In this document: positions 17,390 through 46,136 of the stretch, piece by piece | Numbering within the stretch: position 1 is the first letter of the stretch | Layout: each line of letters opens with the position of its first letter | Assembly: GCA_041666915.1 (NCBI GenBank) | Contig: JBAYFZ010000001.1 | Span: 137,086-201,085 of the forward strand | DNA: 64,000 nt | Source: Minisyncoccota bacterium | GTDB taxonomy: Bacteria > Patescibacteriota > Minisyncoccia > Phycocordibacterales > PALSA-1337 | Direction of reading: 5' to 3' | Translations under genes and position numbers: made by a program | Notes under the pieces: generated by a model | The model's database searches: none | Seen by the model: only the letters and a program-made list of their open reading frames with translations | Told to the model about the DNA's origin: nothing

Positions 17390-17395
17390 ACGCAA

Positions 17396-26336: not shown

Positions 26337-27629
26337 TTATAGATATGAAAGTGGGTTTAGGTAGGCTTTATAATCAGCCGTTGGAATGACAACTCCTCGG
26401 CAGTTTACACTATTATCAAAACGTTTGATTTGGACTCCTTCAGTAGCATAGACACCGAAATGTAAATGTGGTCCAGTGGAGTAACCGGTATTACCACTAT
26501 AACCTAGCATATCTCCGGTACTGACTGTCTGCCCTTTTATTACATTTTGAAGTGAAAGGTGGGCGTATAGAGTGGAAAGTCCGTTGGCATGTTTTATCAT
26601 TACCCATTTACCGTAAGAGTAACAACTTCGGACGATGTCTGTATCCCCTACACCGATTATTGTTCCAGAAAGAGCGGCTTTGACTGGTGTACCTATTGAG
26701 GCACGAAAATCTATTCCTGTATGACCGCGACCATTGTAAACTTGGGGGTTGGCTGTTGCGAAAGGAGTGTTGCCAAAATATTGAGTTACAGTGATTTTAT
26801 CTAATGGCCAAGAAAGAACACCTGAACCCGTATGAGGGATAAGGTTTGGGTGTATCAGGAGGTTGAGTTGCGATTCGTAACTATTTATCTCTTGTTGAAA
26901 GGCTGCTTCTTGTGCTTTTTTTTGAGCTAAAATCTTTTTGTAATTGGCTTCTGATTGGCTGGTTTCCTTCAATAGAGCCGTCTGTTCAGCGGATGTAGAA
27001 AGGACCAGAGCACGCTGGTCACTGAGCTGATTGTTAAGTTTAACTAATTCAGCCTTGGCTTTTTCGCTAGCCTTTTTATTTGTCTCAAGATTGGCTTTGT
27101 CTTGACTGAGCTCTTTGATACGATCATATAGGCCTTGTTGCAAGATATTTAATTGCTCAAATGAATCTATAGTCTGCGAGACGGATCTACTACTCAAGAT
27201 TAGTTCTGGTAAAGACTGGCTCCCCGATTCATTTATAGTAGAAAAAGTTTTGGCTATGATGCGCTGATTGTCACTGATATTACTTTCTTTGCCGGTAATC
27301 TGTGAACCAAGTCTTTGGATTTCATAATTTTTGGAAGCAATCTTATCTTGAGTTAAAGAAATGTTTTTTTCAAGTTTTTTGCGGGTTAATTCTAGGGTCT
27401 TTATCGTTGATACAAGAGAAACCGTTTGTGTTGAAAGAGCATCAATCTGTTTTTGATAGCTCGCAATCTCCTTTTCTAGGTTAGCTATATCAGCATTTCT
27501 CTGGTCAATCTTTGCTTGGATGTCGCTGGCAGTTTGGGCGTGGAGAGAAATGGTAGAGGTAAGAGGTAGGAGGTAAGAGATAAGAAATATAACAATAAGA
27601 AGTAAAGAGGTTTTATGGAATTTAATCAT
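26337..27629 (-). CDS. M23/LytM-family metallopeptidase with an N-terminal signal peptide and a long coiled-coil region (EnvC/NlpD-like architecture).
   Basis: C-terminal HxxxD/HxH LytM motifs (…GRGHTGIDFRASIGTPV…, …YAHLS…, …GPHLHFGVY…). Heptad-rich middle region. Confidence 0.85.
   Translation of the reverse strand: MIKFHKTSLLLIVIFLISYLLPLTSTISLHAQTASDIQAKIDQRNADIANLEKEIASYQKQIDALSTQTVSLVSTIKTLELTRKKLEKNISLTQDKIASKNYEIQRLGSQITGKESNISDNQRIIAKTFSTINESGSQSLPELILSSRSVSQTIDSFEQLNILQQGLYDRIKELSQDKANLETNKKASEKAKAELVKLNNQLSDQRALVLSTSAEQTALLKETSQSEANYKKILAQKKAQEAAFQQEINSYESQLNLLIHPNLIPHTGSGVLSWPLDKITVTQYFGNTPFATANPQVYNGRGHTGIDFRASIGTPVKAALSGTIIGVGDTDIVRSCYSYGKWVMIKHANGLSTLYAHLSLQNVIKGQTVSTGDMLGYSGNTGYSTGPHLHFGVYATEGVQIKRFDNSVNCRGVVIPTADYKAYLNPLSYL
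27552..27586 (+). repeat. GTAAGAG-rich repeat family, copy R1 (GGTAGAGGTAAGAGGTAGGAGGTAAGAGATAAGAA). It overlaps the signal-peptide coding region of the M23 peptidase gene.
   Basis: Near-identical to copy R3 at 44531..44573. Confidence 0.8.
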
Positions 27630-27650
27630 ATTTTTTACTGATGGGTGAAT

Positions 27651-27686
27651 CTTAACTCTTACCTCTTATCTCTTACCTCTCTGCCC
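27651..27686 (-). repeat. GTAAGAG-rich repeat, copy R2 (inverted orientation), in the gltX-M23 intergenic region.
   Basis: CTTAACTCTTACCTCTTATCTCTTACCTCTCTGCCC is the reverse complement of the family consensus. Confidence 0.8.
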
Positions 27687-27687
27687 C

Positions 27688-29037
27688 CTAACCCAACTTC
27701 ATTATCGCCCCATCAATCCTCTTCAAAGTCTCCTCTTTACCCAGAATAAATGCCGAGGTAAAAGGATCTGGTGACTTTTCTTGTCCTGTCAAAGCTACAC
27801 GTAATGGCCAAAGAACATCACCTTTGCCTTTTTCTTCCGCATATCCCCAAAGGGCATTTTTGATGTTTTCAACCGTGAAGTTATTAGGTTTGACCTCGTC
27901 AATTAATTCTCGAACCTTGGTCAAATGTTTACCCGCCTCTTCCCTGCTAGGATTCTTTTTCCAAAGAAGCATGTCAGTTTTGTAATCAGAAATTTCTTTT
28001 ATGAAATTTAATTCACCTCCAAGTTCAAAAAGTTTACTGATCTCGCCAAGAACGGAGATTTTCTCACGCAAGATTGGTTGCAACTTTCCGGCTAGATCCG
28101 ACTTAGCCGAAAGCCATTCTGGTATGAAAGGTTTGGCTATTTCATTGAATTCTTTATCGGATAATTTTGTAATGTATTCTTTGTTGAACCAGTTGAGCTT
28201 TTCTATATCAAATATAGCTCCAGCCTTCTGGACTCTTTCTAGAGAAAATTGTTTGAGGATCTCTTCACGACTGAAAATCTCTTTGTCATCATTTGGATGC
28301 CAACCGAGCATGGCTAGATAATTGACTACTGCTTCTGGTAGATATCCTCTGGAACGATATTCGGTAATAGGTAAAGCACCTTTGCGTTTGGAAAGTTTGG
28401 TTCTGTCTGGTGAAAGTAGTAGTGGAATATGAGCGTACTCAGGGATTGGTAAACCCAAAGCTTCAAAAAGAAGAATATGCCTAGGTGTATTGGAAATATG
28501 ATCTTCACCTCTGACAATATGAGTTATGCCAGATTCTGCATCATCTATGACGACCACGAGATGAAAGACTGGCTCGGTCATACTTCTTGCAATGATAAAA
28601 TCGCCAAGCTCGGTAGTATCAAATTCTATTGGACCACGTATCATATCCACAAATTTAACTTTCTTATTTGGATTTCGGAATCGGATAACTTCACTGCGCA
28701 TTTTGGAGGCTTCTTCGGCAGAAAGACCTTCTCTTGGGGTTTCTTTGGAAATATAAGCTTTACCGGAGTCTATGAGTTTTTGAATGTATTTTTGATATAC
28801 GGCTGTCCTATCAGATTGTCTGCAAAAATCGTCGTATTCCAATCCTAGCCACTTTAAACTATCAATAATATTATCCTCATATTCTTTCTTTGAACGTTCC
28901 TTGTCGGTGTCTTCTATGCGTAGGATGAATTTGCCGTCATTTTGGCGGGCGTAAATGTAAGAGAAAAGAGCAGTTCTATAATTGCCGGCATGTAAATATC
29001 CGGTTGGTGATGGGGCGAAACGGGTGATGATTTTCAT
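27688..29037 (-). CDS. gltX: Glutamyl-tRNA synthetase.
   Basis: Class I HIGH (…FAPSPTGYLHAGNYRTAL…) and KMSKS (KLSKRKG) motifs. Overall GluRS architecture. Confidence 0.9.
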   Translation of the reverse strand: MKIITRFAPSPTGYLHAGNYRTALFSYIYARQNDGKFILRIEDTDKERSKKEYEDNIIDSLKWLGLEYDDFCRQSDRTAVYQKYIQKLIDSGKAYISKETPREGLSAEEASKMRSEVIRFRNPNKKVKFVDMIRGPIEFDTTELGDFIIARSMTEPVFHLVVVIDDAESGITHIVRGEDHISNTPRHILLFEALGLPIPEYAHIPLLLSPDRTKLSKRKGALPITEYRSRGYLPEAVVNYLAMLGWHPNDDKEIFSREEILKQFSLERVQKAGAIFDIEKLNWFNKEYITKLSDKEFNEIAKPFIPEWLSAKSDLAGKLQPILREKISVLGEISKLFELGGELNFIKEISDYKTDMLLWKKNPSREEAGKHLTKVRELIDEVKPNNFTVENIKNALWGYAEEKGKGDVLWPLRVALTGQEKSPDPFTSAFILGKEETLKRIDGAIMKLG

Positions 29038-29053
29038 AGGTTGATTTTAACAT

Positions 29054-29199
29054 GTCATTGTCATTCCCGCGAAGGCTTTTTTGTTGTCATTCCCGCGAAG
29101 GCGGGAATCTAGGATTATTACGAGATAATAGTTTATTATAATTATTTGGAAATAGATTTTGTGGTAATATCCTGGATTCCCGCCTTCGCGGGAATGACA
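29054..29199. mobile_element. MITE-like element, copy B. It has an extra partial left-TIR duplicate (29054..29076) and a longer internal core.
   Basis: TIRs GTCATTCCCGCGAAGGCGGGAATCT … GGATTCCCGCCTTCGCGGGAATGACA. Confidence 0.8.
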
Positions 29200-29204
29200 G
29201 CACA

Positions 29205-29238
29205 AACAAAAACCACTGACTTTCGCCAGTGGTTTTTA
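29205..29238. terminator. Bidirectional rho-independent terminator.
   Basis: AAAAACCACTGACTTTCGCCAGTGGTTTTT. Confidence 0.7.
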
Positions 29239-29274
29239 CTAGTCTCTAATAACTAACCCCTAATCCCTATCTAA

Positions 29275-29781
29275 TTATCCCTTAAGTCCTGCATCTGCTG
29301 AAGATGTAGCTTTGAATACTCTCATGATAACATTACCCTTTGCATCTTTGAGAGGTAGATCTTTTGTAGCGTCAAAAGCTTTGGCACCACTATCTGTATA
29401 GATAACAGCGTAGTAAGTATTACCGTCAACCATTGATTGGGTCAAAGTAATCTTGCCTGGATTGATACCAGCAGCGAAACGAGCTGAACCAATGACTTTG
29501 CCTGGAGTACCTGCATTATCGGCTTGGATCACAACCCAGCTAGGAGATGAAACCTGAACTGTTGAGATGTAGACGATGTTACCAGGAAACTGATCTGACA
29601 TGATGATGCGATTTATTGCACCGATCTGGTCATCTGTAGTGATAGGGGTCTCATCTGTTGTTACAGGAGCTTCTGCACCTCCTTTACCACTGAAAACTTT
29701 GATACCTATGATAATAAGTAAAACAATGACAATTACGGTTACAACCCACTGCCATGTCTTGATTCCACTTTGAGGTTCCAT
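29275..29781 (-). CDS. Membrane-anchored secreted hypothetical protein.
   Basis: N-terminal TM (WQWVVTVIVIVLLIIIGI) followed by a beta-rich domain. No motif recognised. Confidence 0.55.
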   Translation of the reverse strand: MEPQSGIKTWQWVVTVIVIVLLIIIGIKVFSGKGGAEAPVTTDETPITTDDQIGAINRIIMSDQFPGNIVYISTVQVSSPSWVVIQADNAGTPGKVIGSARFAAGINPGKITLTQSMVDGNTYYAVIYTDSGAKAFDATKDLPLKDAKGNVIMRVFKATSSADAGLKG

Positions 29782-29846
29782 ATTATTTGTTTAAGAATTA
29801 AAAACTTATAATTACGACTTTATTATTACCCTATAAGCCTAGCATA

Positions 29847-30977
29847 CTATTTCTCGTGTTCCAAGGCTATATCTAGTATAGCGTCAGCTATCACGTTGGC
29901 ACTGTCCAATCTGGCGAAGTTACGGGCTTTTTCACGCATTGCACGATTTATCTCAGGTGAAGTGATTATACGGTTTATCTCTTCTATGAGTATATGAGAA
30001 CTCAGATTGTTTTCTTCAATAATAGAGGCTGCACCAGTTTTTCCATAAGAAAAAGCGTTGGTGGTCTGGTCATGAGATATAGAATGAGGCAGAGGGATGA
30101 TGATAGAAGGTACTCCCCATGCTGCGATTTCAAATATAGTTGACCCAGCTCTAGAGATAACGACGTCGGCCACACCAGATGACATGCGCATAGCCAAATC
30201 ATTCAAATAATCAAAAGGATGATAACGGTATGCGTACTTATTACCTCTCAAAACTTCAGTTGAGGTTAATTTTGTTTCTTCTAGATTGGCACTACCAGTC
30301 TGATGAATAATCTGATAGTTGTTTAGGAGTTCTGGCAGAGCGTCTAACACTACTTCGTTGATACTTTGTGAACCTTGTGAACCTCCAAGAATCAGAATCA
30401 TAGGAGTTCCCTCTTCAAGATCCAAGAATTCTCTAGCACCATTTTTCAGGGGTTGGATAATCTCTTTTCTGATCGGATTGCCTGTAAGAGCGACCCTATC
30501 TTTATGAATAAAGTATTGTTCAGCGTCAGGGAAAGATAGAGCTATACGTTTGGCAAATTTTCCAGACCAAGCATTGACCCTACCCGGCCTACTGTCTGAT
30601 TCGTGAATAACTATAGGAATATTTAATATTTTTCCCGCCAAGAGTGCTGGAAAAGCCCCATAACCGCCTTTGCTAAATATTACATCTGGATATATTGAGT
30701 AAATTTTGAAAAATGCCCATAGACAGCCGTAAGCAGTCTTAAAAAGGTCGGTTATATTTAATATAGAAAAATAACGACGTAGTTTCCCTGCTGGTACGGA
30801 AATAAATTCTATGCCATTCTCAAAAAGAGTCCTAGCGTTGTAAGGATTTGGGGCCATGTAATAGAATTCTGGTTGCAGTATCTTTCCTGATCGTACTTGT
30901 TCCTGAAGAGCTTCGGCAACGGCAATGATTGGATAAAAATGTCCGCCAGTGCCACCTCCTGTAAATAAGATTTTCAT
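29847..30977 (-). CDS. murG: UDP-N-acetylglucosamine--N-acetylmuramyl-(pentapeptide) pyrophosphoryl-undecaprenol N-acetylglucosamine transferase.
   Basis: MKILFTGGGTGGHFYP… N-terminal glycine-rich motif. GT28 architecture, C-terminal …GGSQGS…. Confidence 0.9.
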   Translation of the reverse strand: MKILFTGGGTGGHFYPIIAVAEALQEQVRSGKILQPEFYYMAPNPYNARTLFENGIEFISVPAGKLRRYFSILNITDLFKTAYGCLWAFFKIYSIYPDVIFSKGGYGAFPALLAGKILNIPIVIHESDSRPGRVNAWSGKFAKRIALSFPDAEQYFIHKDRVALTGNPIRKEIIQPLKNGAREFLDLEEGTPMILILGGSQGSQSINEVVLDALPELLNNYQIIHQTGSANLEETKLTSTEVLRGNKYAYRYHPFDYLNDLAMRMSSGVADVVISRAGSTIFEIAAWGVPSIIIPLPHSISHDQTTNAFSYGKTGAASIIEENNLSSHILIEEINRIITSPEINRAMREKARNFARLDSANVIADAILDIALEHEK

Positions 30978-31016
30978 GGGATTATTCTAGCATATTCAAG
31001 GTCTACCCTCGAGGTA

Positions 31017-31991
31017 CTATTTTTTCAGTATTACCTTGTGTATCGCTTTATAAATATCTTTTTCTCCTAAACCGTAAAGTTCAAGAAGTTCTTCTGATTG
31101 ACCTGATTGACCAAAAACATCTTTGACGCCAACGAATTCTATAGGAGTTGGAAAATGTGTTGAAAGACATTCCGCAACAGCTGAACCCATACCTCCGTGA
31201 ATCTGATGTTCCTCTACGGTAACTATTGCCCCAGTCTTGTGTGCCAGTTTGATGATTGCTTGTTCGTCTAACGGCTTGATAGTAGAAAGATTCATGACAG
31301 TTACGTCTATACCTTCATTGGTTAGTTTCTTTGCCGTCATGAGGGCTTTGTATAGGATCGGGCCAGTGGCAATGATGCCGACGGAAGCGAGGCTTCCGGA
31401 TTTTGAACCATTCTTTTCGTAAACAATCTGTGCTTTACCAATCTTGAAAATAGCTTCTTCATTTGTAATGACAGGACTTTTTTCGCGTACCAATCTCACA
31501 TATGTTGGATCATTAGTTTTGGCAATTTCAATGATAGTTTTCTTAGCTTCAATAGCATCGCAAGGGCTCACAACAACCATTCTTGGAAGCGATCTCATGA
31601 GAGCTATGTCTTCTAGAGCTTGATGACTTCCACCATCTGGACCGACATTCAAACCAGCGTGAGTGCCGATGATCTTCACTGGAAGATTGTTGTAACAGAT
31701 AGTTGTGCGGATCTGTTCCCAATTTCTACCGGGACTAAAAACTGCATATGATGCCATGAATGGGATCTTGCCCATGCTAGCCATGCCGGAAGCTACAGTT
31801 GCTAGATTTTGTTCGGCTACACCAACTTCTATGTATCTTTCAGGAAACTTTTGTTTGAAAGGTAACATGCCGGTTGATTCGGCTAGATCTGCACAGAGAC
31901 CTACTACTTGGGCATTTGCTTCACCAGCTATAACTAGGCCTTCACCGAAGCCTGCGCGCATAGAAGCTAGTTTTTTATTGTCATTTTGCAT
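31017..31991 (-). CDS. Transketolase C-terminal section (pyrimidine-binding and C-terminal domains). The ORF-track N-terminal extension (to 32207) runs through MITE copy C and is probably not translated.
   Basis: Starts MQNDNKKLASMRAGFGEGL…. Homology to the transketolase central and C-terminal domains (…GPDGGSHQALEDIA…). Confidence 0.8.
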   Translation of the reverse strand: MQNDNKKLASMRAGFGEGLVIAGEANAQVVGLCADLAESTGMLPFKQKFPERYIEVGVAEQNLATVASGMASMGKIPFMASYAVFSPGRNWEQIRTTICYNNLPVKIIGTHAGLNVGPDGGSHQALEDIALMRSLPRMVVVSPCDAIEAKKTIIEIAKTNDPTYVRLVREKSPVITNEEAIFKIGKAQIVYEKNGSKSGSLASVGIIATGPILYKALMTAKKLTNEGIDVTVMNLSTIKPLDEQAIIKLAHKTGAIVTVEEHQIHGGMGSAVAECLSTHFPTPIEFVGVKDVFGQSGQSEELLELYGLGEKDIYKAIHKVILKK

Positions 31992-32029
31992 AATGTTTTG
32001 TTTGTCATTTACCGTCCCCTCCGAGGATA

Positions 32030-32106
32030 AACTTCGGCGGGAATCCAGGATATTACCAATATATTCACGGGTTAGACACTGGATTCCCGCCTTCGCGGGA
32101 ATGACA
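32030..32106. mobile_element. MITE-like element, copy C. The left TIR is degenerate and the right TIR is intact. It lies between the two transketolase half-genes and supplies the last codons and stop of the N-terminal half (…HSREGGNPVSNP*).
   Basis: CGGCGGGAATCCAGGAT … GGATTCCCGCCTTCGCGGGAATGACA. Confidence 0.7.
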
Positions 32107-32928: not shown

Positions 32929-32936
32929 TGGTAGTA

Positions 32937-33873: not shown

Positions 33874-33896
33874 TCGTAAAGCTTACCAAGCATAAA

Positions 33897-34175: not shown

Positions 34176-34256
34176 ATACTGAAGTATATACTTTGGTATA
34201 GTATCTCGTCAAGTGGTTATTTTGAGCCGTCCTAGAGGTATTGACCTTTTGAAAAA

Positions 34257-34733: not shown

Positions 34734-34758
34734 GGAGGTTAGTTAATTAATAGTAATC

Positions 34759-35442
34759 TTAATTCAAATTAACTAGATCCCTTGTTACTCTAGGGATCTG
34801 ATTCGTAAAAAAAGCTTTTACTTCCTTCCAACTGGCTTTGAAATTGGTCTCTGGATCTGGATCATTTTCAGCATCTTCAAAATAGACAAGACTTTTCAAA
34901 ATATGACTGACATTTTGTTTTACGGTGTATTGTTGATCAACTCGCCTTATACTCTCCTCAATGGGTAAAATATTCTGACTTAACCAATACATATCAATAA
35001 AATCTCGTTTTCGTCCTCGTTGACTTATAGCGACAACCTTCATGACAGAGATATCTTTGGGAGTTATAACGTTTACAAAACCAATCTTGAGCATATCATC
35101 TGCATTCTTAAAAAATGGATAGTAAATCAGACTCATCTTTGCGCCCAAAAATTCTCCATAAATAGTCCCGGGACTCATTGAGGTTGTTTCCCATTGACCT
35201 AAAGTGCTCAATTGTTCAGCAATCTTCCCTTCATCAAACTTTTGGTTTGTAAAAAAGTCCAAGTCAACTGATTTTCTATGACCAACTTGAAGAGTGAGTG
35301 CTGTTCCACCAGCAAGATACCAACCATTTTCTGCAAATAATGGGATTTCCACGCATCGTAAGAAAGCCCCCTTTGTCTTTTCGGACAACATCTCAAGGTG
35401 TAGACTTTCAATCGATGTCTTTACTGTAGGACTAGTGACCAT
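34759..35442 (-). CDS. Nucleotidyltransferase, AbiEii/AbiGii toxin family (DUF1814).
   Basis: …WYLAGGTALTLQVGHRKSVDLDFF… (GG…R.S.DLD nucleotidyltransferase motif of AbiEii). Confidence 0.75.
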   Translation of the reverse strand: MVTSPTVKTSIESLHLEMLSEKTKGAFLRCVEIPLFAENGWYLAGGTALTLQVGHRKSVDLDFFTNQKFDEGKIAEQLSTLGQWETTSMSPGTIYGEFLGAKMSLIYYPFFKNADDMLKIGFVNVITPKDISVMKVVAISQRGRKRDFIDMYWLSQNILPIEESIRRVDQQYTVKQNVSHILKSLVYFEDAENDPDPETNFKASWKEVKAFFTNQIPRVTRDLVNLN

Positions 35443-35645
35443 AAGTTTTTTGATTTAGATGACAACTGTACACGAGGTAATTCCATAACTTTTTTGATAG
35501 CATCTTTGGAGTATTGTTTAAAAAGCCAACGAACTTCGTCTAATCTTCCATATTCCAATACTCTCTCAATGACATAACGAGCATTTTTATCTAGATCTAT
35601 TTTTGCGGGATTGGTATCCCAAAAGAGTGATTCTCTGAATTTCAT
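35421..35645 (-). CDS. Small protein upstream of and overlapping AbiEii. Putative cognate antitoxin or regulator (hypothetical).
   Basis: 74 aa, 22-nt overlap with the AbiEii start. Helix-rich (…YVIERVLEYGRLDEVRWLF…). Confidence 0.45.
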   Translation of the reverse strand: MKFRESLFWDTNPAKIDLDKNARYVIERVLEYGRLDEVRWLFKQYSKDAIKKVMELPRVQLSSKSKNLWSLVLQ

Positions 35646-35678
35646 ATCTATATTATAGCATATTTTGGGATAAATTTC

Positions 35679-36218
35679 TCATTCAATTTCTTCGTAATTA
35701 TATGATTGATCCACTCCCTTCATGAAAACTTCGCGGTCATCGATTTTATCGGTCAAAGCGGTACGCAAAAGCTCGCGAATCTCTAGGTCATTCACCGGAC
35801 TGCGTTGCATTGCGTTCAAATAGTTGACCTTGTCGATCTTGACCCAATCAACACATTGTTTGAGATTTTTTTTAAACATCAAATCAAGCCAGATCCTCAT
35901 ACTCCGCCCGTTTCCTTCCATAAATGGATGAGCTATATTCATTTCCACATATTTTGCGACGATGTTCTCAAAAGTAATTTCCGACATTTTATCAATCTTT
36001 TTTAAACTTTCTTCCAGATATAAAGAAGAAGCAAATCGAAAGCCCCCTTTGCTTATATCTTTTATGCGAATCTGACCAGCAAAATCGTAAAGCTCCACAA
36101 ATAAATATTGGTGGATTTTTTGTAAACCTCTGGTTGTGCCGACCTCAAAACTTTCAATTTCCTGACTACCGAAAAGTTTTTTGGCTCGTTCTTTGCTGAT
36201 TTGGTCAACATTTGACAT
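35679..36218 (-). CDS. fic: Fic/Doc-family protein (AMPylating enzyme family).
   Basis: Canonical Fic motif [12 protein letters not shown]. Confidence 0.85.
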
Positions 36219-36278
36219 AGTATTATTATACCATTTTTACAGATGTTTTTCCATAATAATTAAGAATTTTTACAGTTT

Positions 36279-37310: not shown

Positions 37311-37478
37311 ATTATGAATATTGTTAGTTAATTGGAATAATTGTATCACGGTCTTGTTGAAATATGCACCCATGTTTTGTGTCTTGTACACAGCCCTGCT
37401 TTGTATAAATTTACCAAAAATTATAGACTTGATACGGAATAATACGAGCACAAAACGTGTTCGAGTCCTTATAATGTT

Positions 37479-37937: not shown

Positions 37938-37954
37938 GGTAAGGTAGAGGTTAT

Positions 37955-39022: not shown

Positions 39023-39093
39023 GGAGATATATTACCATATTCCGACTATGTCGGACCTAGACGAAAAATAGGTTATAATGTAACCAAGTTTTT

Positions 39094-39690: not shown

Positions 39691-39703
39691 TCCTGCTTTC
39701 TAT

Positions 39704-40426
39704 ATGCTTTCTATAATAATCCCAACCTATAACGAGGAGAAGTACATCGGCGAAAGCTTAGAGCAATTCAAGCAAAAGCTTACTTTACCTCACGAAATCA
39801 TCGTATCTGATGACAAAAGTACTGACAAAACAGTTGAGATTGCCAAATCTTTTCAGGATGTGACCGTCCTAGTTCCAGAAAAAAAGCATCAAGCTATCGG
39901 AGCAAATAGAAACGAAGGAGCTCGTACAGCTAAAGGTGATTTTTTCGTTTTCATGGATGGAGATAGTAGAATAGAAAATCCTGATAAATTCTTTAGTACG
40001 ATTTTAGAATATTTTGAGGCTAATAAAAATGTAGTGGCTGTGACTACTTATTTGCAAGTTTTGAAAGAATGTGAGACTTTTACCGATCGTTTTATTTATA
40101 TTATTTTCAATTGGACACATGTTTTAAAAAATAATATCTTTCATACTGGCGAAGCTTCTGGCAAATTCCAGATGATTCGTAAGGAAGCTTTTTTGAAAGT
40201 TAACGGTTACCGCGAGGACCTCGTTTCTCGTGAAGATGCAAACATGTTCCAAAGATTGAGTGAAATAGGTAGAACCATCTGTTTATCCAATCTCAGGGTC
40301 TTCCATTATGGCCGTAGAGCGCATAGAATAGGGTGGCCCAAGCTTTTGTATATTTGGATGACCGAAACCTTGTATGTGGCTATAAATGACAGGTCAATAG
40401 CGAAGGAATGGAAAGATGTTAGATAA
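39704..40426 (+). CDS. Family 2 glycosyltransferase.
   Basis: MLSIIIPTYNEE…, …SDDKSTDKT…, DxD (MDGDSR). Confidence 0.8.
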   Translation: MLSIIIPTYNEEKYIGESLEQFKQKLTLPHEIIVSDDKSTDKTVEIAKSFQDVTVLVPEKKHQAIGANRNEGARTAKGDFFVFMDGDSRIENPDKFFSTILEYFEANKNVVAVTTYLQVLKECETFTDRFIYIIFNWTHVLKNNIFHTGEASGKFQMIRKEAFLKVNGYREDLVSREDANMFQRLSEIGRTICLSNLRVFHYGRRAHRIGWPKLLYIWMTETLYVAINDRSIAKEWKDVR

Positions 40427-40456
40427 AAATCCGACTACGGCGACCGAGGCAAAAAC

Positions 40457-41176
40457 ATGAAAATATCAATAGTAATACCAGCTTATAATGAAGAGAAAAA
40501 TATTGCAACGACAATAGAGGCTCTTTTGGCTCAAGATTATAAAGATTATGAGATAATTGTTGTTAATAATGCTAGTACTGATAAAACTTACGAAGTTGCC
40601 AGTAAGTTCCCTGTTAAAGTGGTAACTGAGAATAGGAAGGGACTTCTTTGGGCTCGTGAACGAGGGAGGATTGAAGCCGTCGGAGATATTATTGCTAACA
40701 CTGATGCGGATTGTTTGCCAGATAAAACTTGGTTATCAAATGGTTCTTCATATTTTATAGATGAGAAGATTGCCGCAGTTTCTGGACCATATGATTATTA
40801 TGATGCAGATTGGTTTTTCAGAAAGTCCTCATTGTTTTTTCAAAGTGCTATATATCCTATTGCTAATATGTTTTTCCAATTACCTTTCATTCATCGTGGA
40901 GCAACTATCATAGGTGGTAACAATTTCATACGGGCAAGTGCACTAGAAAAAGCCGGCGGTTATGATACTTCTATTACTTTTTATGGTGAAGATACCGATA
41001 CCGCCAAGCGTGTCTCTGCTCATGGTAAGGTCAAGTTCAGTCCAAGTGTTGTCATGAAGACCTCGGCTCGCCGTTTCAAGGCTGAAGGTAAGTTCAATCT
41101 GATGATGAAATATTGGTATCATTTTTTCAAGCATATTTTGTTTGTTAAGCCGGCAAAGAGGGTGGTGAAAAAGTAA
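40457..41176 (+). CDS. Family 2 glycosyltransferase.
   Basis: MKISIVIPAYNEE…, …NNASTDKT…, DxD (TDADC). Confidence 0.8.
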   Translation: MKISIVIPAYNEEKNIATTIEALLAQDYKDYEIIVVNNASTDKTYEVASKFPVKVVTENRKGLLWARERGRIEAVGDIIANTDADCLPDKTWLSNGSSYFIDEKIAAVSGPYDYYDADWFFRKSSLFFQSAIYPIANMFFQLPFIHRGATIIGGNNFIRASALEKAGGYDTSITFYGEDTDTAKRVSAHGKVKFSPSVVMKTSARRFKAEGKFNLMMKYWYHFFKHILFVKPAKRVVKK

Positions 41177-41295
41177 GTGAGTCTTTTGATTTTGGTTGAG
41201 CGAATTAAAGACTATTAAGATTAGAGGGGGGGTCGCTTTTACTTTTAAAGAAAAGAACGTCCGCACATATTACTCTTTGAAAATTCTCTCTTTCT

Positions 41296-41342
41296 CATAA
41301 AATAAATGTGACGGATTTTCCGTCACATTTATTTTATGAGAA
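41296..41342. other. Perfect 47-nt palindrome (CTCATAAAATAAATGTGACGGA-TTTT-CCGTCACATTTATTTTATGAG).
   Basis: 21-bp stem read directly. Lies between convergent genes, upstream of the terminator at 41390..41420. Confidence 0.7.
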
Positions 41343-41389
41343 AAAAGACTCCCTATCCCCTTCCTTTGAATTTCTTGCATATGAAAAAA

Positions 41390-41420
41390 CGTCGAAAAGT
41401 TCGACGTTTTTTCATTTTTC
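41390..41420. terminator. Bidirectional rho-independent terminator.
   Basis: AAAAAACGTCGAAAAGTTCGACGTTTTTTC. Confidence 0.75.
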
Positions 41421-41528
41421 AGTCTTTTCTGTTAGTCTCTACTTTCCTAGATCCTTATTTGAATTGGAATCTTTCACCTCTTAATTAATTCCATTAAATC
41501 CACCAACCTTTGAATAGGTTTTCAACTA

Positions 41529-42464
41529 TTAATCGGATTTCTTATTTGAATCCTTACCAGAATCACTTTTTGGAGTAGAAGTTGCGTTGTTACCCATATT
41601 TATATTTAACTTCTCCCTTTCCTTATCACCCTTTGTTAGAAGCTTAATAATAGTATTTGCTTCGTTCTTGGCAGAAGTGAGATCTCCATGAGCAACCTTT
41701 ATCTTTGCACGAGCAGACTGTAGAGCCTTCGTAGTAGAAGCCATCATACCTTTGTCTCCTTGATCAGGGATAAGGTTTGCAACATCCGTAATGGCTCCCT
41801 GAGCTTGTATTTGAGCATCAGCAACCTTGGAATTGAACCTTACAAGAGCTTCCCTAGCCGAAGCAATATTTGCCGATGTTATTTGACTTGAAGTTGCCTG
41901 ACTATTCAGACGAGCTTCCAATTTTGAGCTGACTATAGACATCATGCTTACCATTGTGGTTATTCTATCTGCTGACGCAATGATATTCATCTTTGGCATA
42001 AACAAAGCGTAAACGCGATATTTACTAGTTATAGAATCACGAGCTTCTTTTAGTGTCGTCGTTGAATTTGTAGTATCTATCGTGTTTTTAAGTTTGTTGA
42101 GCTCAGCTACAAGTTCGTTGACGTTTGAGGCGATAAAAGATTCATCATTATCGGATAGATTTTTGAATTCCTTAATCCTCTCTTGAAGTTTCTTTAAATC
42201 TTCTATCCTCTTTTCAAGTTCCTTATCAGCCGCTGTTTTGATTCTCTCAATCTTTTTTTCTGCCAATTCCCCCTTTTTTTCTTCAATTTCTTTTTTGTTA
42301 TCTGTTGAGGAAGCTGATCTGGTCTCAATCTCATTCTCAACCTCTTGATCATCTGAAGAAATTTTATTTACACGTCTTTCTTCAGCTGAAACTGAAGATA
42401 TTGTGATAAATAAAGCAAAAACCATAGAACATACTATAAGTGGAATTGTTGTTTTGTTTTTCAT
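41529..42464 (-). CDS. Secreted coiled-coil protein, hypothetical.
   Basis: Signal peptide. Highly charged heptad-rich sequence. No catalytic motif. Confidence 0.55.
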   Translation of the reverse strand: MKNKTTIPLIVCSMVFALFITISSVSAEERRVNKISSDDQEVENEIETRSASSTDNKKEIEEKKGELAEKKIERIKTAADKELEKRIEDLKKLQERIKEFKNLSDNDESFIASNVNELVAELNKLKNTIDTTNSTTTLKEARDSITSKYRVYALFMPKMNIIASADRITTMVSMMSIVSSKLEARLNSQATSSQITSANIASAREALVRFNSKVADAQIQAQGAITDVANLIPDQGDKGMMASTTKALQSARAKIKVAHGDLTSAKNEANTIIKLLTKGDKEREKLNINMGNNATSTPKSDSGKDSNKKSD

Positions 42465-42490
42465 ATTTGTATATTGGTTATGGTTAATAA

Positions 42491-42781
42491 TTATTTTATT
42501 GTCATACCCTGATCAACATTGGCTGCGTCAGCGTTCAAAGCTTCTACTTGTTTACTAAAAGCGTCAAGATCATTTTGTATAGCCGTAGTAGATGTGTCTG
42601 TCTCCGCACTAAGTCCTGTACCTGCTGTGTTAGGTTCTTTTGGTGGTGGAGTTACGACGGTTTCAGTTACTATTGGTGTTGGTTCTACTTTTACTTGCGA
42701 ATTGTTGTACCAAATCCAACCTATTACGATAATAACTAGTATAATCACTAGAGCAATACCCGTTTTTGCTGTTGTTGTCAT
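42491..42781 (-). CDS. Small membrane-anchored protein, hypothetical.
   Basis: N-terminal TM (IALVIILVIIVIGWIWY) followed by a Pro/Thr-rich linker. Confidence 0.5.
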   Translation of the reverse strand: MTTTAKTGIALVIILVIIVIGWIWYNNSQVKVEPTPIVTETVVTPPPKEPNTAGTGLSAETDTSTTAIQNDLDAFSKQVEALNADAANVDQGMTIK

Positions 42782-42892
42782 ATGATTTTTAATTTAAATA
42801 TTAATTGGTAATTCGTGTCACGGAGTTTGACGGTAGTCGTAAAAAACGGCAGTCAAACTCACCTTCATGTATCTTACCACAGTTTTGTTATT

Positions 42893-43014
42893 GTCATTCC
42901 CGCGAAGGCGGGAATCCAGAATTATTACGAATCAATAATCTATATTTTGTGGTAACCATGGATTCCCGGTCCATTCGACACGATTTTGCTAAATCGCCTT
43001 TGCGGGAATGACAC
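42893..43014. mobile_element. MITE-like element, copy D. The right TIR is interrupted by a ~29-nt insertion.
   Basis: GTCATTCCCGCGAAGGCGGGAATCCAGAATTATTACGAATCAATA…GGATTCCCGG[…]TTTGCGGGAATGACA. Confidence 0.8.
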
Positions 43015-43150
43015 AACACTGAGAATGACAAGCAAATAACTTTTCCACTGTTTGTCCACCTTTTTTATTTGGAGATATAAAAATTGCACGTGCTACAATT
43101 AAACAACTCAATTATATTTTTCACATAATTTTGTTTAAGAATTTTATTTC

Positions 43151-44530
43151 ATGGACACTGCTTCCCCTTATTTCAAAACTAGAGACCTCAAAATTCCGCC
43201 TCACAGTTTGGAAGCGGAAAAAGCTCTTCTTGGGTCCATCATGATCCGTGGTGAGGCAATGCATGACATTGTTGATATTGTTGGCGAACAATCTTTCTAT
43301 TCAAATATTCACAGAATGGTTTGGTCAGCTTTGTTGGAACTTCATACCAAAGGTTCTCCTATTGATGTTCTCACTTTGTCGGCCCGCCTCAAAGAAAAAG
43401 AGCAATTGGAACAGACTGGTGGCATGGCTTTCCTCACTGAACTCATCAACACGGTTCCTTCTTCTACTAACGCCAATCATTACGCTGAAATAGTTGAGAA
43501 AAAGCACAGCATGCGCGAACTTCTACGTGCAGCTGAGCAAATATCTGGTCTTGGTTATGATGAAGAATCAGAATTACATGAACTTTTGGAAAAAGCGGAA
43601 AAAGCCTTATATCATGTAACCAATAAGACAGGCTCACACAAATTTGTTGCTCTAAAAGACACTTTACATGAAGCATGGGAACGTTTGGATCATTTACACA
43701 AGACTACGGGTGAGCTTCGAGGTGTACCTTCTGGTTTTGCAGAGATTGATGCCAAACTTTCTGGTTTCCAAAAGTCTGACCTCATCATTCTCGCTGCCCG
43801 TCCTTCTATGGGAAAAACTTCCCTTGCTTTGGATATTGCACGTAAAGCTGCCGTCAATCACAAAGTTCCAGTCGCTATCTTTTCTCTAGAAATGAGCTCG
43901 CAACAATTGGTGGATCGTATGCTTTCTGCAGAATCACAAGTTGATAGTTGGAAGATACGCACCGGTCACAATCTTTCGGTTGAACAAGATTTCAAAGCTA
44001 TCGGTGAAGCTATCAGCCGTCTCTCCGATGCTCCTATTTATATTGACGATGCTCCGGGCAATAATATTTTGAAAATGCGCGCCGTCGCTCGTCGTCTCAA
44101 AAATGAAAAGGGTCTCGGACTTATCGTTGTGGACTACCTCCAGCTCATGTTGCCAACTACAACAAAGAACAACGACAACCTTGTTCAACAAGTCACCGAG
44201 ATTTCCCGCTCTTTGAAAAACCTCGCTCGTGAACTAGAAGTTCCTGTCCTAGCTTTGTCACAGCTTTCTCGTGCCGTGGAACAACGTGGTGGTAAACCTC
44301 GCCTTTCAGACCTTCGCGATTCAGGTTCTATTGAACAGGATGCTGACGTAGTCATGTTCATCCATCGTGAAGCCGACCAAGACCTCGGTGGTAAGAAGGA
44401 AGAAGCTGAGATTCTCATTGAAAAGCATAGAAACGGTCCTACTGGTATTGCCAAACTATTCTTTGATAGTAAGAAAACTACTTTCATGTCTATTGATAAA
44501 GCGGACTTTGGTGGTTTTGAGGAGAAGTAA
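43151..44530 (+). CDS. dnaB: Replicative DNA helicase.
   Basis: …PHSLEAEKALLGSIM… N-terminal motif. Walker A (ARPSMGKTS). Walker B (…VVDYLQLM…). RecA-like C-terminus. Confidence 0.95.
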   Translation: MDTASPYFKTRDLKIPPHSLEAEKALLGSIMIRGEAMHDIVDIVGEQSFYSNIHRMVWSALLELHTKGSPIDVLTLSARLKEKEQLEQTGGMAFLTELINTVPSSTNANHYAEIVEKKHSMRELLRAAEQISGLGYDEESELHELLEKAEKALYHVTNKTGSHKFVALKDTLHEAWERLDHLHKTTGELRGVPSGFAEIDAKLSGFQKSDLIILAARPSMGKTSLALDIARKAAVNHKVPVAIFSLEMSSQQLVDRMLSAESQVDSWKIRTGHNLSVEQDFKAIGEAISRLSDAPIYIDDAPGNNILKMRAVARRLKNEKGLGLIVVDYLQLMLPTTTKNNDNLVQQVTEISRSLKNLARELEVPVLALSQLSRAVEQRGGKPRLSDLRDSGSIEQDADVVMFIHREADQDLGGKKEEAEILIEKHRNGPTGIAKLFFDSKKTTFMSIDKADFGGFEEK

Positions 44531-44573
44531 GGGAGAGGTAAGAGGTAGGAGTTAAGAGATAAGAAGGTAAGAA
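44531..44573 (+). repeat. GTAAGAG-rich repeat, copy R3. It fills the whole dnaB-to-next-gene intergenic spacer.
   Basis: GGGAGAGGTAAGAGGTAGGAGTTAAGAGATAAGAAGGTAAGAA. Confidence 0.8.
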
Positions 44574-44575
44574 AA

Positions 44576-44980
44576 ATGCAGACAACAATTAAGATTCAAA
44601 AATTTACTGATTTAGTTGTTTGGCAAGAGGGTCATAAACTTGTTCTTATGATCTATAAGACAACTAGAAAGTTTCCTAAATCTGAGATATTTGGGCTTGT
44701 TAGTCAGATGCAAAGATCTGCCGTTTCAGTTACATCCAATATTGCTGAAGGGTTTGGTAGGCGTGCTTATAAAGAGAGGTCTCATTTTTATTATATTGCC
44801 CAAGGCTCACTTACTGAACTAAAAAATCAACTTTTAATTGCTAGGGATATAGGTTATATTTCAGATGTAGATTATTTAAATATTGAGGAACAAGCCAATC
44901 AAACGCACAGGATTCTTCAAGGGTTTATTTCGAAAACCAATCAATTTGCTGGATCTTATCTCTTAACTCCTACCTCTTAA
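44576..44980 (+). CDS. Four-helix-bundle protein (TIGR02436 / '23S rRNA intervening-sequence protein' family). Its last ~8 codons (…SYLLTPTS*) are encoded by repeat copy R4.
   Basis: …VVWQEGHKLVLMIYKTTRKFPKSEIFGLVSQMQRSAVSVTSNIAEGFGRR…HFYYIAQGSLTEL… matches the family consensus. Confidence 0.8.
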   Translation: MQTTIKIQKFTDLVVWQEGHKLVLMIYKTTRKFPKSEIFGLVSQMQRSAVSVTSNIAEGFGRRAYKERSHFYYIAQGSLTELKNQLLIARDIGYISDVDYLNIEEQANQTHRILQGFISKTNQFAGSYLLTPTS

Positions 44981-44989
44981 CTCTACTCC
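44955..44989 (-). repeat. GTAAGAG-rich repeat, copy R4. Inverted relative to R3, so the four-helix-bundle gene is bracketed by an inverted pair.
   Basis: CTTATCTCTTAACTCCTACCTCTTAACTCTACTCC. Confidence 0.8.
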
Positions 44990-44990
44990 T

Positions 44991-45635
44991 ATGGATTCCC
45001 TTCACCGCCTAGAAGAAATATTTGCCAAATTCCCCGGTATTGGTCCTCGCCAAGCCAAGCGTTTTGTTTATTATATTTTAAATAAGTCACCATCTTCTAT
45101 AAGAGAATTTACCCAGCTCATTGAAGAGGTCAAAAAGTCTACTTTGGAATGCTCAATGTGCCACCGCTTTTTTACTCTTACCTCTAATCTCCTACCTCTT
45201 AACTCCAAATCTTCTCTCTGCCAAATTTGCTCCGACACTTCCCGTGACCAATCCAGCTTGATGATAGTCGCTCGTGATTCAGATCTAGAGACTGTAGAAA
45301 AGAGTCACGCTTATAACGGTTTGTACTTTGTCCTTGGTGGGACAATACCTATTCTAGACAAAGAACCAGATAAGCGTATTCGTTTGGAAATGCTTTTGAA
45401 AAGAGTTTCGGCGGTTTCGGCTCCCACTAGGTCGGACCTCGCGGAAATTATCCTTTCTTTAAATACGACTCCTGATGGTGAGAATACTGCTCAAATAGTT
45501 AAAGAGGCCATACAAAAGGTTGTTGGTGCCAAACCTATCAAAATCTCGGTACTTGGTCGCGGTTTGTCTACTGGTGCCGAGTTGGAATATGTTGACGGTG
45601 AGACTATTAAGAGTGCCCTCAAAAATAGGAGTTAA
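44991..45635 (+). CDS. recR: Recombination protein RecR, carrying an in-frame 11-codon insertion inside the C4 zinc finger.
   Basis: HhH (…FPGIGPRQAKRFVYYIL…). Zinc finger CSMC-x19-CQIC instead of the usual about C-x2-C-x8-10-C-x2-C. Toprim and C-terminal domains present. Confidence 0.9.
   Translation: MDSLHRLEEIFAKFPGIGPRQAKRFVYYILNKSPSSIREFTQLIEEVKKSTLECSMCHRFFTLTSNLLPLNSKSSLCQICSDTSRDQSSLMIVARDSDLETVEKSHAYNGLYFVLGGTIPILDKEPDKRIRLEMLLKRVSAVSAPTRSDLAEIILSLNTTPDGENTAQIVKEAIQKVVGAKPIKISVLGRGLSTGAELEYVDGETIKSALKNRS
45174..45206 (-). repeat. GTAAGAG-rich repeat, copy R5. Exactly 33 nt, embedded in-frame in recR (encodes …TLTSNLLPLNS…).
   Basis: ACTCTTACCTCTAATCTCCTACCTCTTAACTCC. Confidence 0.8.
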
Positions 45636-45640
45636 AAAAC

Positions 45641-45667
45641 GCACTATTTCTGGTGCGTTTTTCTTAT
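45641..45667. terminator. Bidirectional terminator after recR.
   Basis: AAAAAACGCACTATTTCTGGTGCGTTTTTC. Confidence 0.7.
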
Positions 45668-45696
45668 CCCTTAACTCCTATCTCTTACCTCTACCC
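45663..45696 (-). repeat. GTAAGAG-rich repeat, copy R6.
   Basis: CTTATCCCTTAACTCCTATCTCTTACCTCTACCC. Confidence 0.75.
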
Positions 45697-46013
45697 TACT
45701 TCAACGCATCAATCTTGACCTGAACAAAAGGCTGTCTGTGACCATTTTTCTTGAAATAACGGCTCTTTTGTTTGTAGTGAACAACCACAACCTTAGGTTC
45801 ACGACCGATCTTTACGACAGTTGCTTTGACTGAAGCCTTTTCAATGAAAGGTGTGCCAATAGTAGTATTTTTGCCATCATCAACTAGGAGGACTTTGTCG
45901 AAGACGATCTTGTCGCCTTCTTTCTGAGTGTCAGAAAGCTTCTCAATGCTAATAACATCGCCCTTTGAGACGCTGTATTGCTTGCCACCTGTTTGAATTA
46001 CTGCAAATTCCAT
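45696..46013 (-). CDS. rplU: 50S ribosomal protein L21. The ORF-track start at 46055 is a spurious extension.
   Basis: MEFAVIQTGGKQYSV…KVLLV… L21 signature. 105 aa. Confidence 0.9.
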   Translation of the reverse strand: MEFAVIQTGGKQYSVSKGDVISIEKLSDTQKEGDKIVFDKVLLVDDGKNTTIGTPFIEKASVKATVVKIGREPKVVVVHYKQKSRYFKKNGHRQPFVQVKIDALK

Positions 46014-46060
46014 AGTGGAACATAGTATACAGGTTTTATTGGAACATGCAAGCAAAAAAT

Positions 46061-46136
46061 GGAGGTAAGAGGTAAGAGCTAAGAATAGTCACAAATGCGT
46101 TTTTTCTTAACTCTTACCTCCTAACTCTTAACTCTC
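46061..46136. repeat. GTAAGAG-rich repeats, copies R7 (+, 46061..46085) and R8 (-, 46106..46136). Together they form a near-perfect hairpin, GGAGGTAAGAG…CTCTTACCTCC.
   Basis: Read directly from the sequence. Located between rplU and rmuC. Confidence 0.8.

Follow-up and report, generated by a model that had tools for sequence, protein, structure and literature searches.

In a 64,000-nt stretch of the genome of a Minisyncoccota bacterium (Candidatus Paceibacterota, within the candidate phyla radiation, CPR; metagenomic contig JBAYFZ010000001.1, positions 137,086 to 201,085), hereafter the window, we studied eight copies (R1 to R8) of a short GTAAGAG-rich repeat together with the gene for a small four-helix-bundle protein that two of the copies enclose. 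R3, this gene and R4 have the anatomy of an intervening sequence (IVS) of 23S rRNA that contains an open reading frame (ORF). Two further pairs at gene junctions, R1/R2 and R7/R8, have the same structure without an ORF, and R5 and R6 stand alone as 3'-type arms that can pair with R3. The copies, each an array of 7-nt units, are ancient rather than recently inserted, hold their positions across relatives and are under selection, and those of one genome evolve in concert. Guided by what is known of studied IVSs, we lean towards a reading in which the IVS-type cassette, the ORF-less hairpins and the solo arms would be paired in the operon transcript, and RNA processing is probably the use of the arm pairs around four-helix-bundle genes. 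The features of the region are as follows.

26337-27629, minus strand: gene for an M23 peptidase
27552-27586, plus strand (purine-rich reading): R1, arm inside the M23 coding sequence, pairs with R2
27651-27686, minus strand: R2, partner of R1, 1 nt past the stop codon of gltX (27688-27690) and before the start codon of M23
27688-29037, minus strand: gltX
43151-44530: dnaB
44531-44573, plus strand: R3, 5' arm of the cassette, directly after the dnaB stop codon and ending 2 nt before the ATG of the four-helix-bundle gene
44576-44980, plus strand: four-helix-bundle gene, 134 aa, TIGR02436/PF05635 '23S rRNA intervening sequence protein', cargo of the cassette
44955-44989, minus strand: R4, 3' arm of the cassette, ending 1 nt before the recR ATG
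44991-45635: recR
45174-45206, minus strand: R5, solo arm, in frame within the recR zinc-finger loop
45663-45696, minus strand: R6, solo arm between the terminator-like hairpin of recR (45637-45664) and the rplU stop codon
45696-46013, minus strand: rplU, start at 46013
46061-46085, plus strand: R7, arm of the ORF-less hairpin between rplU and rmuC
46106-46136, minus strand: R8, partner of R7, overlapping the rmuC end
46128-47258, minus strand: rmuC

All eight GTAAGAG-rich copies were present in the window, typically ~31-35 nt long (overall range 25-43 nt), and Tandem Repeats Finder (TRF) called a period-7 array of 3.3-5.4 units for 8/8 of them. The 29-mer GGTAAGAGGTAGGAGGTAAGAGATAAGAA, taken from R1, had 5 matches in the window at ≤3 mismatches, compared with 0 in 100 shuffles. 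When aligned in the purine-rich orientation, the copies shared one register (xAGAG-TAAGAG-TAGGAG-TAAGAG-TAAGAA, a 35-mer with 18 invariant columns), each consisting of about five 7-nt units (N-TA[A/G]GAG) in fixed order. This common register indicates that R1-R8 are copies of one sequence, not independent slippage products. The other 50 kb of the window held no further copies, and neither did 9.6 kb of sequence past it, where no period-7 array of any kind was seen.

Single copies were purine- or pyrimidine-rich tandem heptamer arrays without internal dyad symmetry, and folding needs pairs of copies. Three inverted pairs were found, with R5 and R6 as solo arms. R3 and R4 had 31-nt arms that were 97% complementary with 389-390 nt between them, R1 and R2 had 31-nt arms that were 90% complementary with a 64-nt spacer, and the loop between R7 and R8 was 20 nt. 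The predicted RNA stems beat those of shuffled sequences (z = -4.2 for R3/R4, -4.4 for R2/R1 and -7.3 for R8/R7), and R3/R4 was the closing stem in both the minimum-free-energy fold and the centroid fold. R3 was also complementary to R5 (87%) and, over 42 nt, to R6 (90%). No target-site duplication was visible at the outer ends of R1/R2, R3/R4 or R7/R8, and no transposase or RAYT gene was evident adjoining any copy. An Rfam scan of the window returned four tRNAs only, with no rRNA and no known RNA family at the repeats. The initial annotation of this DNA had described eight copies of a single family, inverted pairs able to form hairpins, the bracketing of a TIGR02436 gene between dnaB and recR by R3 and R4, and the use of R1 and R4 as coding sequence, and our analysis bears out each of these points.

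R3, the four-helix-bundle gene and R4 form a 459-nt cassette with a 31-bp closing stem. The encoded protein scored 120.5 bits against TIGR02436 (cutoff 24) and was also assigned to PF05635, and its closest solved relative was PDB 2GSC (E = 9.5e-20), an entry with five chains. The gene is under purifying selection, with a dN/dS of 0.04-0.11 at a dS of 1.4-2.7. The properties that define rRNA IVSs are a closing stem of about 20-30 bp, in members with an ORF a PF05635/TIGR02436 ('S23p') product, a location in 23S or 16S rRNA, and removal from the precursor RNA by RNase III without religation. The R3/R4 stem and the cargo gene supply the first two. However, the cassette sits between dnaB and recR, outside rRNA, and we therefore class it as a variant working like an IVS, not as an rRNA IVS. 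In the 428-nt Coxiella IVS, the S23p ORF belongs to the same Pfam family, and RNase III cleaves the 28-bp terminal stem at its middle (PMC4990558). PF05635 ORFs have also been reported within rRNA insertions of CPR bacteria (PMC11270868).

Other affiliations of the four-helix-bundle gene were considered and rejected. As Avd, the accessory protein of diversity-generating retroelements (DGRs), the product scored only 24.7 bits against NF033474 (cutoff 80), and its gene neighbours were dnaB and recR. DGR/Avd-type retrohoming was likewise rejected as a mechanism that homogenises the arrays, as the Avd equivalog failed and no reverse transcriptase adjoined the gene. Carriage by phages was dismissed because no relatives were found in IMG/VR. 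Among the 120 best matches listed, none was a paralogous four-helix-bundle gene on the same 450-kb contig.

The arms are closely fitted to coding sequences. R1 encodes residues 15-26 of the M23 signal peptide (LISYLLPLTSTI), and the loop closed by the R2/R1 stem (minus-strand RNA, -42.8 kcal/mol) holds the ribosome-binding site of M23 together with its ATG and its first 14 codons. R4 provides the final 8 codons and the stop codon of the four-helix-bundle gene. R8 contributes the two final codons of rmuC and its UAA stop, and the R8/R7 stem on the transcribed minus strand (-41.4 kcal/mol) is followed by UUUUUUG. R5 encodes RecR residues 62-72, within the motif C54-x2-C57-x19-C77-x2-C80.

R5 had been interpreted as an exact 33-nt insertion that lengthened the RecR Cys4 loop from x8-10 to x19. 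The array is indeed 33 nt long and in frame, but the size of the change was overstated. Across 120 Paceibacterota RecR homologues the loop is hypervariable (x10 to x45; most often x13, and x19 in 15 of them), and the net gain over the usual loop is ~6 codons. Many x17-19 loops among these homologues resemble translated arrays (TSYLLAPSS, NSNLKSLISN). In an AlphaFold model of RecR (50 homologues; mean pLDDT 76), the check that had been suggested for the x19 finger, the helix-hairpin-helix, zinc-finger and Toprim parts were kept and the loop was a low-confidence coil (mean pLDDT of 61 at residues 61-70 and 70 at residues 71-80). In this model, the R5-encoded segment appears to be a tolerated surface loop at a hypervariable RecR site. 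The RecR loop of one related locus (L129, 4590-4670) carries a different insertion, with AAATTCC-type heptamers flanking a small hairpin. In Paceibacterota RecR, the zinc-finger loop has the look of a site where sequence repeatedly lands or expands.

Orthologous loci were collected through RecR homologues (L124/L125, L126 and L127) and from a wider CPR set (L129 and L145). The gene order of L124/L125 and L126 was dnaB-cassette-recR-rplU, and all loci with the four-helix-bundle gene had arrays at four shared positions: in front of the gene, at its end, within the zinc-finger loop encoded by recR, and next to the stop codon of rplU. Arrays at the R5 position lay at the same recR codon position in L124, L126 and L145, and the R6-position array was also found in L124, L126 and L129. 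The units were CTAGGAG/CTAAGAG in L124 and of the GATTAGA type in L126 and L145; L129 retained the TAAGAG type of the window as well as the R7/R8 hairpin between rplU and rmuC. At the gltX-M23 junction, equivalents of R2/R1 were present in L209, L210 (TCTTAGC type) and L211, again enclosing the M23 start codon. L127, in which dnaB and recR are adjacent without the four-helix-bundle gene, had no period-7 array in 20 kb.

Between the window and L129/L209, four-fold degenerate sites of dnaB, the four-helix-bundle gene, recR and rplU were 33% identical (111/332), i.e., saturated, whereas seven arrays were 90% identical (191/213), a figure that periodicity may inflate somewhat. Arrays that remain this similar where four-fold sites are saturated are therefore old and selected rather than recently inserted. 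The initial annotation had proposed an active, colonising repeat resembling known interspersed elements, and had suggested checking whether orthologous recR, M23 and four-helix-bundle genes lack it. Recent colonisation by an active repeat is not supported, as the relatives carry arrays at the same positions. The observation named there as refuting, orthologues with the same peptide segments, was made in part: RecR and M23 relatives do carry TSYLL/TSNL/LISYLLPLTS-type segments. On a longer time scale, the cassette family has clearly moved.

Within a genome, the arrays resemble one another more than they resemble their positional counterparts elsewhere. Arrays of one genome shared 55% of their 6-mers, compared with 24% for arrays at the same position across genomes, and in more distant relatives the heptamer was shifted at all positions jointly. 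Among orphan arrays of the wider CPR set (n = 91), 34% matched the arms of their own cassette, compared with 12.6% across loci (p = 2.6e-5).

The CPR set comprised 80 metagenomic loci with protein relatives at 52-85% identity, of which 75 genes could be analysed. Complementary sequence upstream of the start codon and around the stop codon was found in 61 of the 75. The median ungapped score of flank complementarity was 16 for own-locus pairs and 8 for cross-locus pairs, and the median duplex energy was -34 kcal/mol as against -25 kcal/mol (p = 1.6e-13). Lag-7 self-identity of at least 75% over 28 nt was reached by 49% of cassette flanks, as against 3.5% of 600 gene boundaries taken from those loci as controls (p = 6.5e-56); at lags of 5, 6, 8 and 9, at most 2% of cassette flanks reached 75%. 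The arm length was sharply peaked, with a median of 4.4 units and interquartile ranges of 3.9-5.2 (5' arm) and 4.0-4.9 (3' arm). The 5' arm was purine-rich in 35/40 cassettes (0.62 vs 0.43, p = 3.5e-7) and contained stop codons in all three frames in 26/40.

The neighbours of the CPR cassettes were mostly co-oriented with them, both upstream (56/62 loci) and downstream (48/57). The median distance from the upstream stop codon to the four-helix-bundle ATG was 31.5 nt, the length of one arm, which leaves no room for a promoter of the cassette's own. Only 5 CPR loci had the dnaB-recR site and the others were spread over dozens to >70 different gene contexts, indicating that the cassette family has moved over a long time scale. 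Mimicry of Shine-Dalgarno and anti-Shine-Dalgarno sequences, striking in the GTAAGAG family (TAGGAGGT, ACCTCCTA), was rejected as a general mechanism because most other cassettes use GATTTAA/GAATTAT-type units.

The arrangement extends beyond CPR. A tblastn search of plasmids returned mostly cyanobacterial four-helix-bundle genes, and ten were inspected, from Nostoc (3), Calothrix, Pseudanabaena, Picosynechococcus, Geminocystis, Riemerella, Gemmatirosa and Azospirillum. Period-7 arrays, mostly inverted, flanked most of the ten. Inverted arrays on both sides were found in Nostoc edaphicum (GTAGGGA/TCCCTAC), Geminocystis (AAAGGGA/TCCCTTT), Picosynechococcus (GGAGATA/TATCTCC) and Riemerella (AAGGTTT/AAACCTT), with the Picosynechococcus arrays called as period 8 by TRF and those of Gemmatirosa also having period 8; the two copies of Nostoc PCC 7120 had a clear array only on the 3' side. 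Several cassettes sit between functionally linked genes, namely nrdB/nrdA in Nostoc edaphicum (L212), cas6/cas4 in Pseudanabaena (L213) and cas10/cmr3 in Picosynechococcus (L216). The Azospirillum lipoferum plasmid AZO_p2 (L220) carries a genuine 23S IVS, as the flanks of its gene align to positions 868-1655 of the large-subunit rRNA model (Rfam, 500.8 bits). Its arms are period-7 arrays of ~4 units (GAGGACG-GATGACA-GAGGACG-GAGGACA and its complement, GTCTTCT-type), and therefore this classical IVS and the window cassette share both the cargo family and heptamer-array arms. The heptamer-flanked four-helix-bundle arrangement thus recurs in at least five bacterial phyla, inside as well as outside rRNA.

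Arrays of the form (NTAAGAG)n, 28-140 nt long, were found in at least 120 GTDB genomes, among them Bacteroidota, Cyanobacteriota, Acidobacteriota, Clostridia, Cloacimonadota, CPR and further groups. These arrays (L004-L123) often abut other heptamers (TTATGAG, GTAATAG, CTCCTTG), and some form hairpins. They are not evidence of one mobile family: even a hidden Markov model built from 76 sequences placed a four-helix-bundle gene within 8 kb in only 3/120 loci. The cross-phylum matches are mostly generic plain tandem arrays, and we do not claim them as the same element.

Under the reading that we favour, the cassette would be transcribed together with its neighbouring genes, and the purine-rich 5' arm and the pyrimidine-rich 3' arm would pair in the transcript to form ~31 bp of double-stranded RNA. 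The stem would hide the ribosome-binding site and start codon of the looped gene, which is either the four-helix-bundle gene or, at the R2/R1 hairpin, the start of M23. If the stem is an RNase III-type substrate, as in studied IVSs, its cleavage would punctuate the polycistronic RNA at gene boundaries, and R8/R7 with its U-run may also act as an intrinsic terminator. An RNA-level signal had been raised as an alternative in the initial annotation; it comes close to this reading, with the pairing itself carried over from studied IVSs. No RNase III gene was recognised by motif within the 64-kb window, a result that is uninformative.

The reading frame may explain where copies can reside. The numbers 7 and 3 are coprime, so an array of at least three units, read in one of its two orientations, supplies stops (or ATGs) in each frame. 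The 5'-side arms could thereby give stops in all frames, and the pyrimidine-rich orientation would read as a harmless Ser/Leu/Thr/Pro-rich peptide, so that copies would be tolerated in recR, M23, rmuC and the tail of the four-helix-bundle protein. The same coprime effect would account for the purine/pyrimidine polarity of the arms together with the harmless in-frame copies.

Several observations weigh against pairing in the transcript. Compared by G-U asymmetry, 46 loci had the stabler duplex on the antisense strand and 28 on the sense strand (p = 0.13), and without a sense-strand G-U bias, pairing could matter equally at the DNA level. The arrays of Pseudanabaena (L213) are direct, not inverted, and have 14-16 units. 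An RNase III cut in R2/R1, or in a stem of R3 with R5, would fall in the coding sequence of M23 or recR. Judged from the sequences, the 90% array identity and the sharing of one heptamer family by separate hairpins seem to exceed what base pairing needs, and the stem model leaves the 7-nt period unexplained.

The cuts in coding DNA expected at R1 and R5, the missing G-U bias, the excess conservation and the shared families favour a sequence-specific trans-acting factor. The arrays would then be putative recognition sites, most plausibly for the encoded four-helix-bundle protein acting as a pentamer with one 7-nt unit per subunit; the hairpins would be secondary, and arrays and protein would co-evolve in each genome. 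We regard this as a serious but distinctly less probable explanation. It would suit the conservation of array sequence beyond pairing (90% against 33% at four-fold sites), the single heptamer family per genome that shifts jointly between lineages, the arm length peaked at 4.4-5 units, the five chains of the 2GSC entry, the strong purifying selection on the gene, and the joint absence of gene and arrays from L127. XCC0516 (PDB 2GSC) and the DGR protein bAvd are pentamers, and bAvd binds nucleic acid. However, many orphan arrays belong to heptamer families unlike those of the local cassette, (NTAAGAG)n arrays across phyla mostly lack a four-helix-bundle gene in the surrounding 8 kb, the match between a pentamer and five units is numerology so far, and the inverted arrangement is explained more simply by pairing. 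In its broadest form, this idea would make the arrays and the TIGR02436 proteins one widespread, undescribed cis/trans system, in which a pentamer reads about five units on RNA or single-stranded DNA at gene boundaries, specificity co-evolves, and 23S IVSs are cassettes that landed in rRNA; we put this forward tentatively, as something that could be true but probably is not. A gene for a cold-shock-domain protein lies just outside the window (L222, 1578-1778; contig 232.7 kb). CspB-type proteins recognise pyrimidine-rich single strands in units of seven nucleotides (cited in PMC4679880), and a cold-shock protein is another candidate reader of the pyrimidine-rich arms.

That the repeat is an active miniature mobile element, now spreading and inserting in frame, is unlikely. 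The copies are in register as one 35-mer family and lie in varied contexts that include coding DNA, related cassettes occupy dozens to >70 gene contexts, the cassette is present or absent at dnaB-recR among relatives (absent from L127), and the recR loop of L129 holds a different array insertion, all of which would fit mobility. Against it, the positions are conserved across lineages whose synonymous sites are saturated, and the single copies are not palindromic. Target-site duplications at the pair boundaries, a transposase or RAYT gene beside the copies, and more copies in the rest of the window or in the 9.6 kb beyond it were not seen.

We give equally little credence to a role of the inverted arrays in DNA, as cruciforms or single-stranded hairpins, replication or recombination signals, or gene-conversion tracts, with transcripts being irrelevant. 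The stems are equally good on both strands, concerted evolution is the expected product of gene conversion, and the copies cluster among genes of replication and recombination (dnaB, recR and rmuC). However, the arms have a strong coding-strand polarity (5' arm purine-rich in 35/40 cassettes), the cassettes are co-oriented with their neighbours, and the exact placement at start and stop codons points to constraints at the level of expression; the studied IVS homologues, moreover, act in RNA (PMC4990558). Functionless simple-sequence repeats arising from polymerase slippage on 7-nt units are very improbable and strongly disfavoured, for although heptamer repeats are over-represented in many bacteria (PMC4692102, PMC4679880) and (NTAAGAG)n is widespread among phyla, slippage does not account for fixed unit order and length, arms in inverted pairs, 90% conservation where neutral sites are saturated, or the very strong association with one gene family (p = 6.5e-56).

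The window contains further repeats of similar design. An arm of an AATTTCT family (17088-17124, plus strand), which overlaps the last codons of the upstream peptidase gene, pairs with an AGAAATT-family arm (17395-17426, minus strand) around a 276-nt intergenic region of nested hairpins, and a third copy of the AATTTCT family (47273-47310, plus strand) lies just upstream of the rmuC start codon. An AATAACC/TTGATTA hairpin with a 15-nt loop (24501-24575, without strand assignment; z = -5.2 and -7.6) precedes rpmA. With these two other heptamer families also occurring as ~30-nt arms, the GTAAGAG family is one instance of a class of short inverted heptamer arrays at gene boundaries. The 320-nt spacer between the convergent genes at 17107-17426 consists almost entirely of nested inverted repeats, with AATTTCT arms outermost, then AATAAAC-type arms, and a palindrome pair of CATTCCCGCGAAGGCGGGAATC innermost. 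This 22-mer belongs to an unrelated family, with six perfect copies in the window compared with 0 expected, and has the palindromic form ATTCCC-N8-GGGAAT. The copies often form inverted pairs with a spacing of ~45-65 nt, and their conserved flanks reach up to 86 nt; they lie at these positions:

17299-17320: CATTCCCGCGAAGGCGGGAATC
17365-17386: CATTCCCGCGAAGGCGGGAATC
29088-29109: CATTCCCGCGAAGGCGGGAATC
29175-29196: CATTCCCGCGAAGGCGGGAATC
32082-32103: CATTCCCGCGAAGGCGGGAATC
42895-42916: CATTCCCGCGAAGGCGGGAATC

ATTCCC-N8-GGGAAT is also the form of the Neisseria dRS3 repeats. A perfect 25-nt inverted repeat with a 3-nt loop (TTTCTCATAAAATAAATGTGACGGA / TCCGTCACATTTATTTTATGAGAAA) is found at 41291-41343. 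Tandem 33-nt repeats (3.6 copies) at 5495-5690, followed by 15- and 18-nt repeats, are apparently coding and rich in Ser, Thr, Gly and Ala.

Other genes of the window are listed here for completeness. ARAGORN predicted a tRNA-Ser with anticodon ACT at 11314-11401, adjoining a tRNA-Ser(CGA); serine tRNAs with A34 are unusual for bacteria. Two defence-type gene groups were recognised: AbiEii, DUF6922 and Fic at ~34990-36220 (L001, 1-1228), and BubE with DUF6791/ThiF and Multi_ubiq, a bacterial ubiquitination-like system, at ~51270-53075 (L001, 16280-18084). Downstream of M23, locus L209 carries Zot, a rolling-circle Rep (REP_ORF2-G2P) and a phage integrase (13345-18067), which together resemble an integrated inovirus-like element; the genes found there in the window are different ones.

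Our analysis ties together three separately described and unexplained things: the 23S IVS elements, the large TIGR02436/'S23 ribosomal protein' family, and the excess of 7-nt tandem repeats in several bacterial phyla. In ~90 related loci and the window, short inverted heptamer arrays nearly always lie on either side of the gene. The picture of a 'selfish IVS' beside an 'odd microsatellite' is thereby turned into testable hypotheses, namely that RNase III punctuates operon transcripts or that the encoded protein, as a pentamer, recognises the arrays. Oddities of CPR annotation, such as Ser/Leu/Thr-rich segments in RecR zinc-finger loops, signal peptides and C-terminal tails, are explained as well. 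If a cis/trans system were true, it would give a function to the 'S23p/IVS protein' family and to the heptamer excess in Cyanobacteria, Bacteroidota, Xanthomonas and CPR.

Several known systems share single features with the repeats. Under the trans-factor explanation only, the arrays are like the (G/U)AG RNA repeats of TRAP, where a ring-shaped homo-oligomer binds close to a start codon, each subunit reading one short unit of a single strand; unlike in TRAP, there is no homology, and binding by the four-helix-bundle protein is hypothetical. Rickettsia palindromic elements (RPEs) also reside in frame within genes without destroying them, as R1, R4, R5 and R8 do, but the window copies are 25-43-nt tandem heptamer arrays and not palindromes. 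RPEs are 100-150-bp palindromic elements known only from Rickettsia, with no known heptamer periodicity or associated four-helix-bundle gene. The window pairs have terminal inverted repeats, like miniature inverted-repeat transposable elements, but show no visible target-site duplication and lie at orthologous sites in relatives of saturated divergence, which excludes them from that class. Repetitive extragenic palindromic (REP) sequences, bacterial interspersed mosaic elements (BIMEs) and REPINs are likewise ~35-nt interspersed repeats, often in inverted pairs at gene ends, that form hairpins in transcripts. However, REP units are imperfect palindromes with hundreds of copies and are linked to RAYT (IS200/IS605-like transposase) genes, whereas the window copies are non-palindromic and few (8 in 64 kb at two loci and 0 in the further 9.6 kb, which covers 74 kb of a contig of at least 450 kb), with no RAYT seen in that part.

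Heptameric simple-sequence repeats are a recognised but unexplained phenomenon, to which the cyanobacterial STRR sequences also belong. The window arrays resemble them in their tandem, head-to-tail 7-nt units (8/8 copies by TRF) and in lying mostly at gene boundaries, but are short (4-5 units), have a fixed unit order and are partly coding. In Xanthomonas, GGGAATC heptamers occur at ~186 sites, including ~70 convergent pairs that may form stem-loops, and related species keep them at the same positions but differ in their sequence and length; Nostoc has the heptamer repeat GGGGA(C/T)T (Rehm et al. 2015, PMC4692102). TAACTGA heptamers are found in Beggiatoaceae, Cyanobacteria and Bacteroidetes, with sets just upstream of start codons (MacGregor 2015, PMC4679880). 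Neither PMC4692102 nor PMC4679880 mentions S23 or a four-helix-bundle gene, and neither links its repeats with IVS elements. No published link of IVS or four-helix-bundle genes with heptamer repeats was found in the literature searched, with subscription journals mostly outside its scope, and the connection among heptamer repeat, four-helix-bundle gene and IVS appears to be undescribed.

The closest relatives are the 23S rRNA IVSs of Leptospira, Coxiella and Alphaproteobacteria. The window cassette differs from them in lying between protein genes and not in helix 25 or 45 of 23S rRNA, in arms that overlap the start and stop codons of neighbours, and in the extra solo arms in recR and beside rplU, and its excision by RNase III is proposed by analogy only. 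It shares with them the TIGR02436/PF05635 cargo, the length (459 nt compared with 428-760 nt), the ~30-bp closing stem and the occurrence of ORF-less versions alongside.

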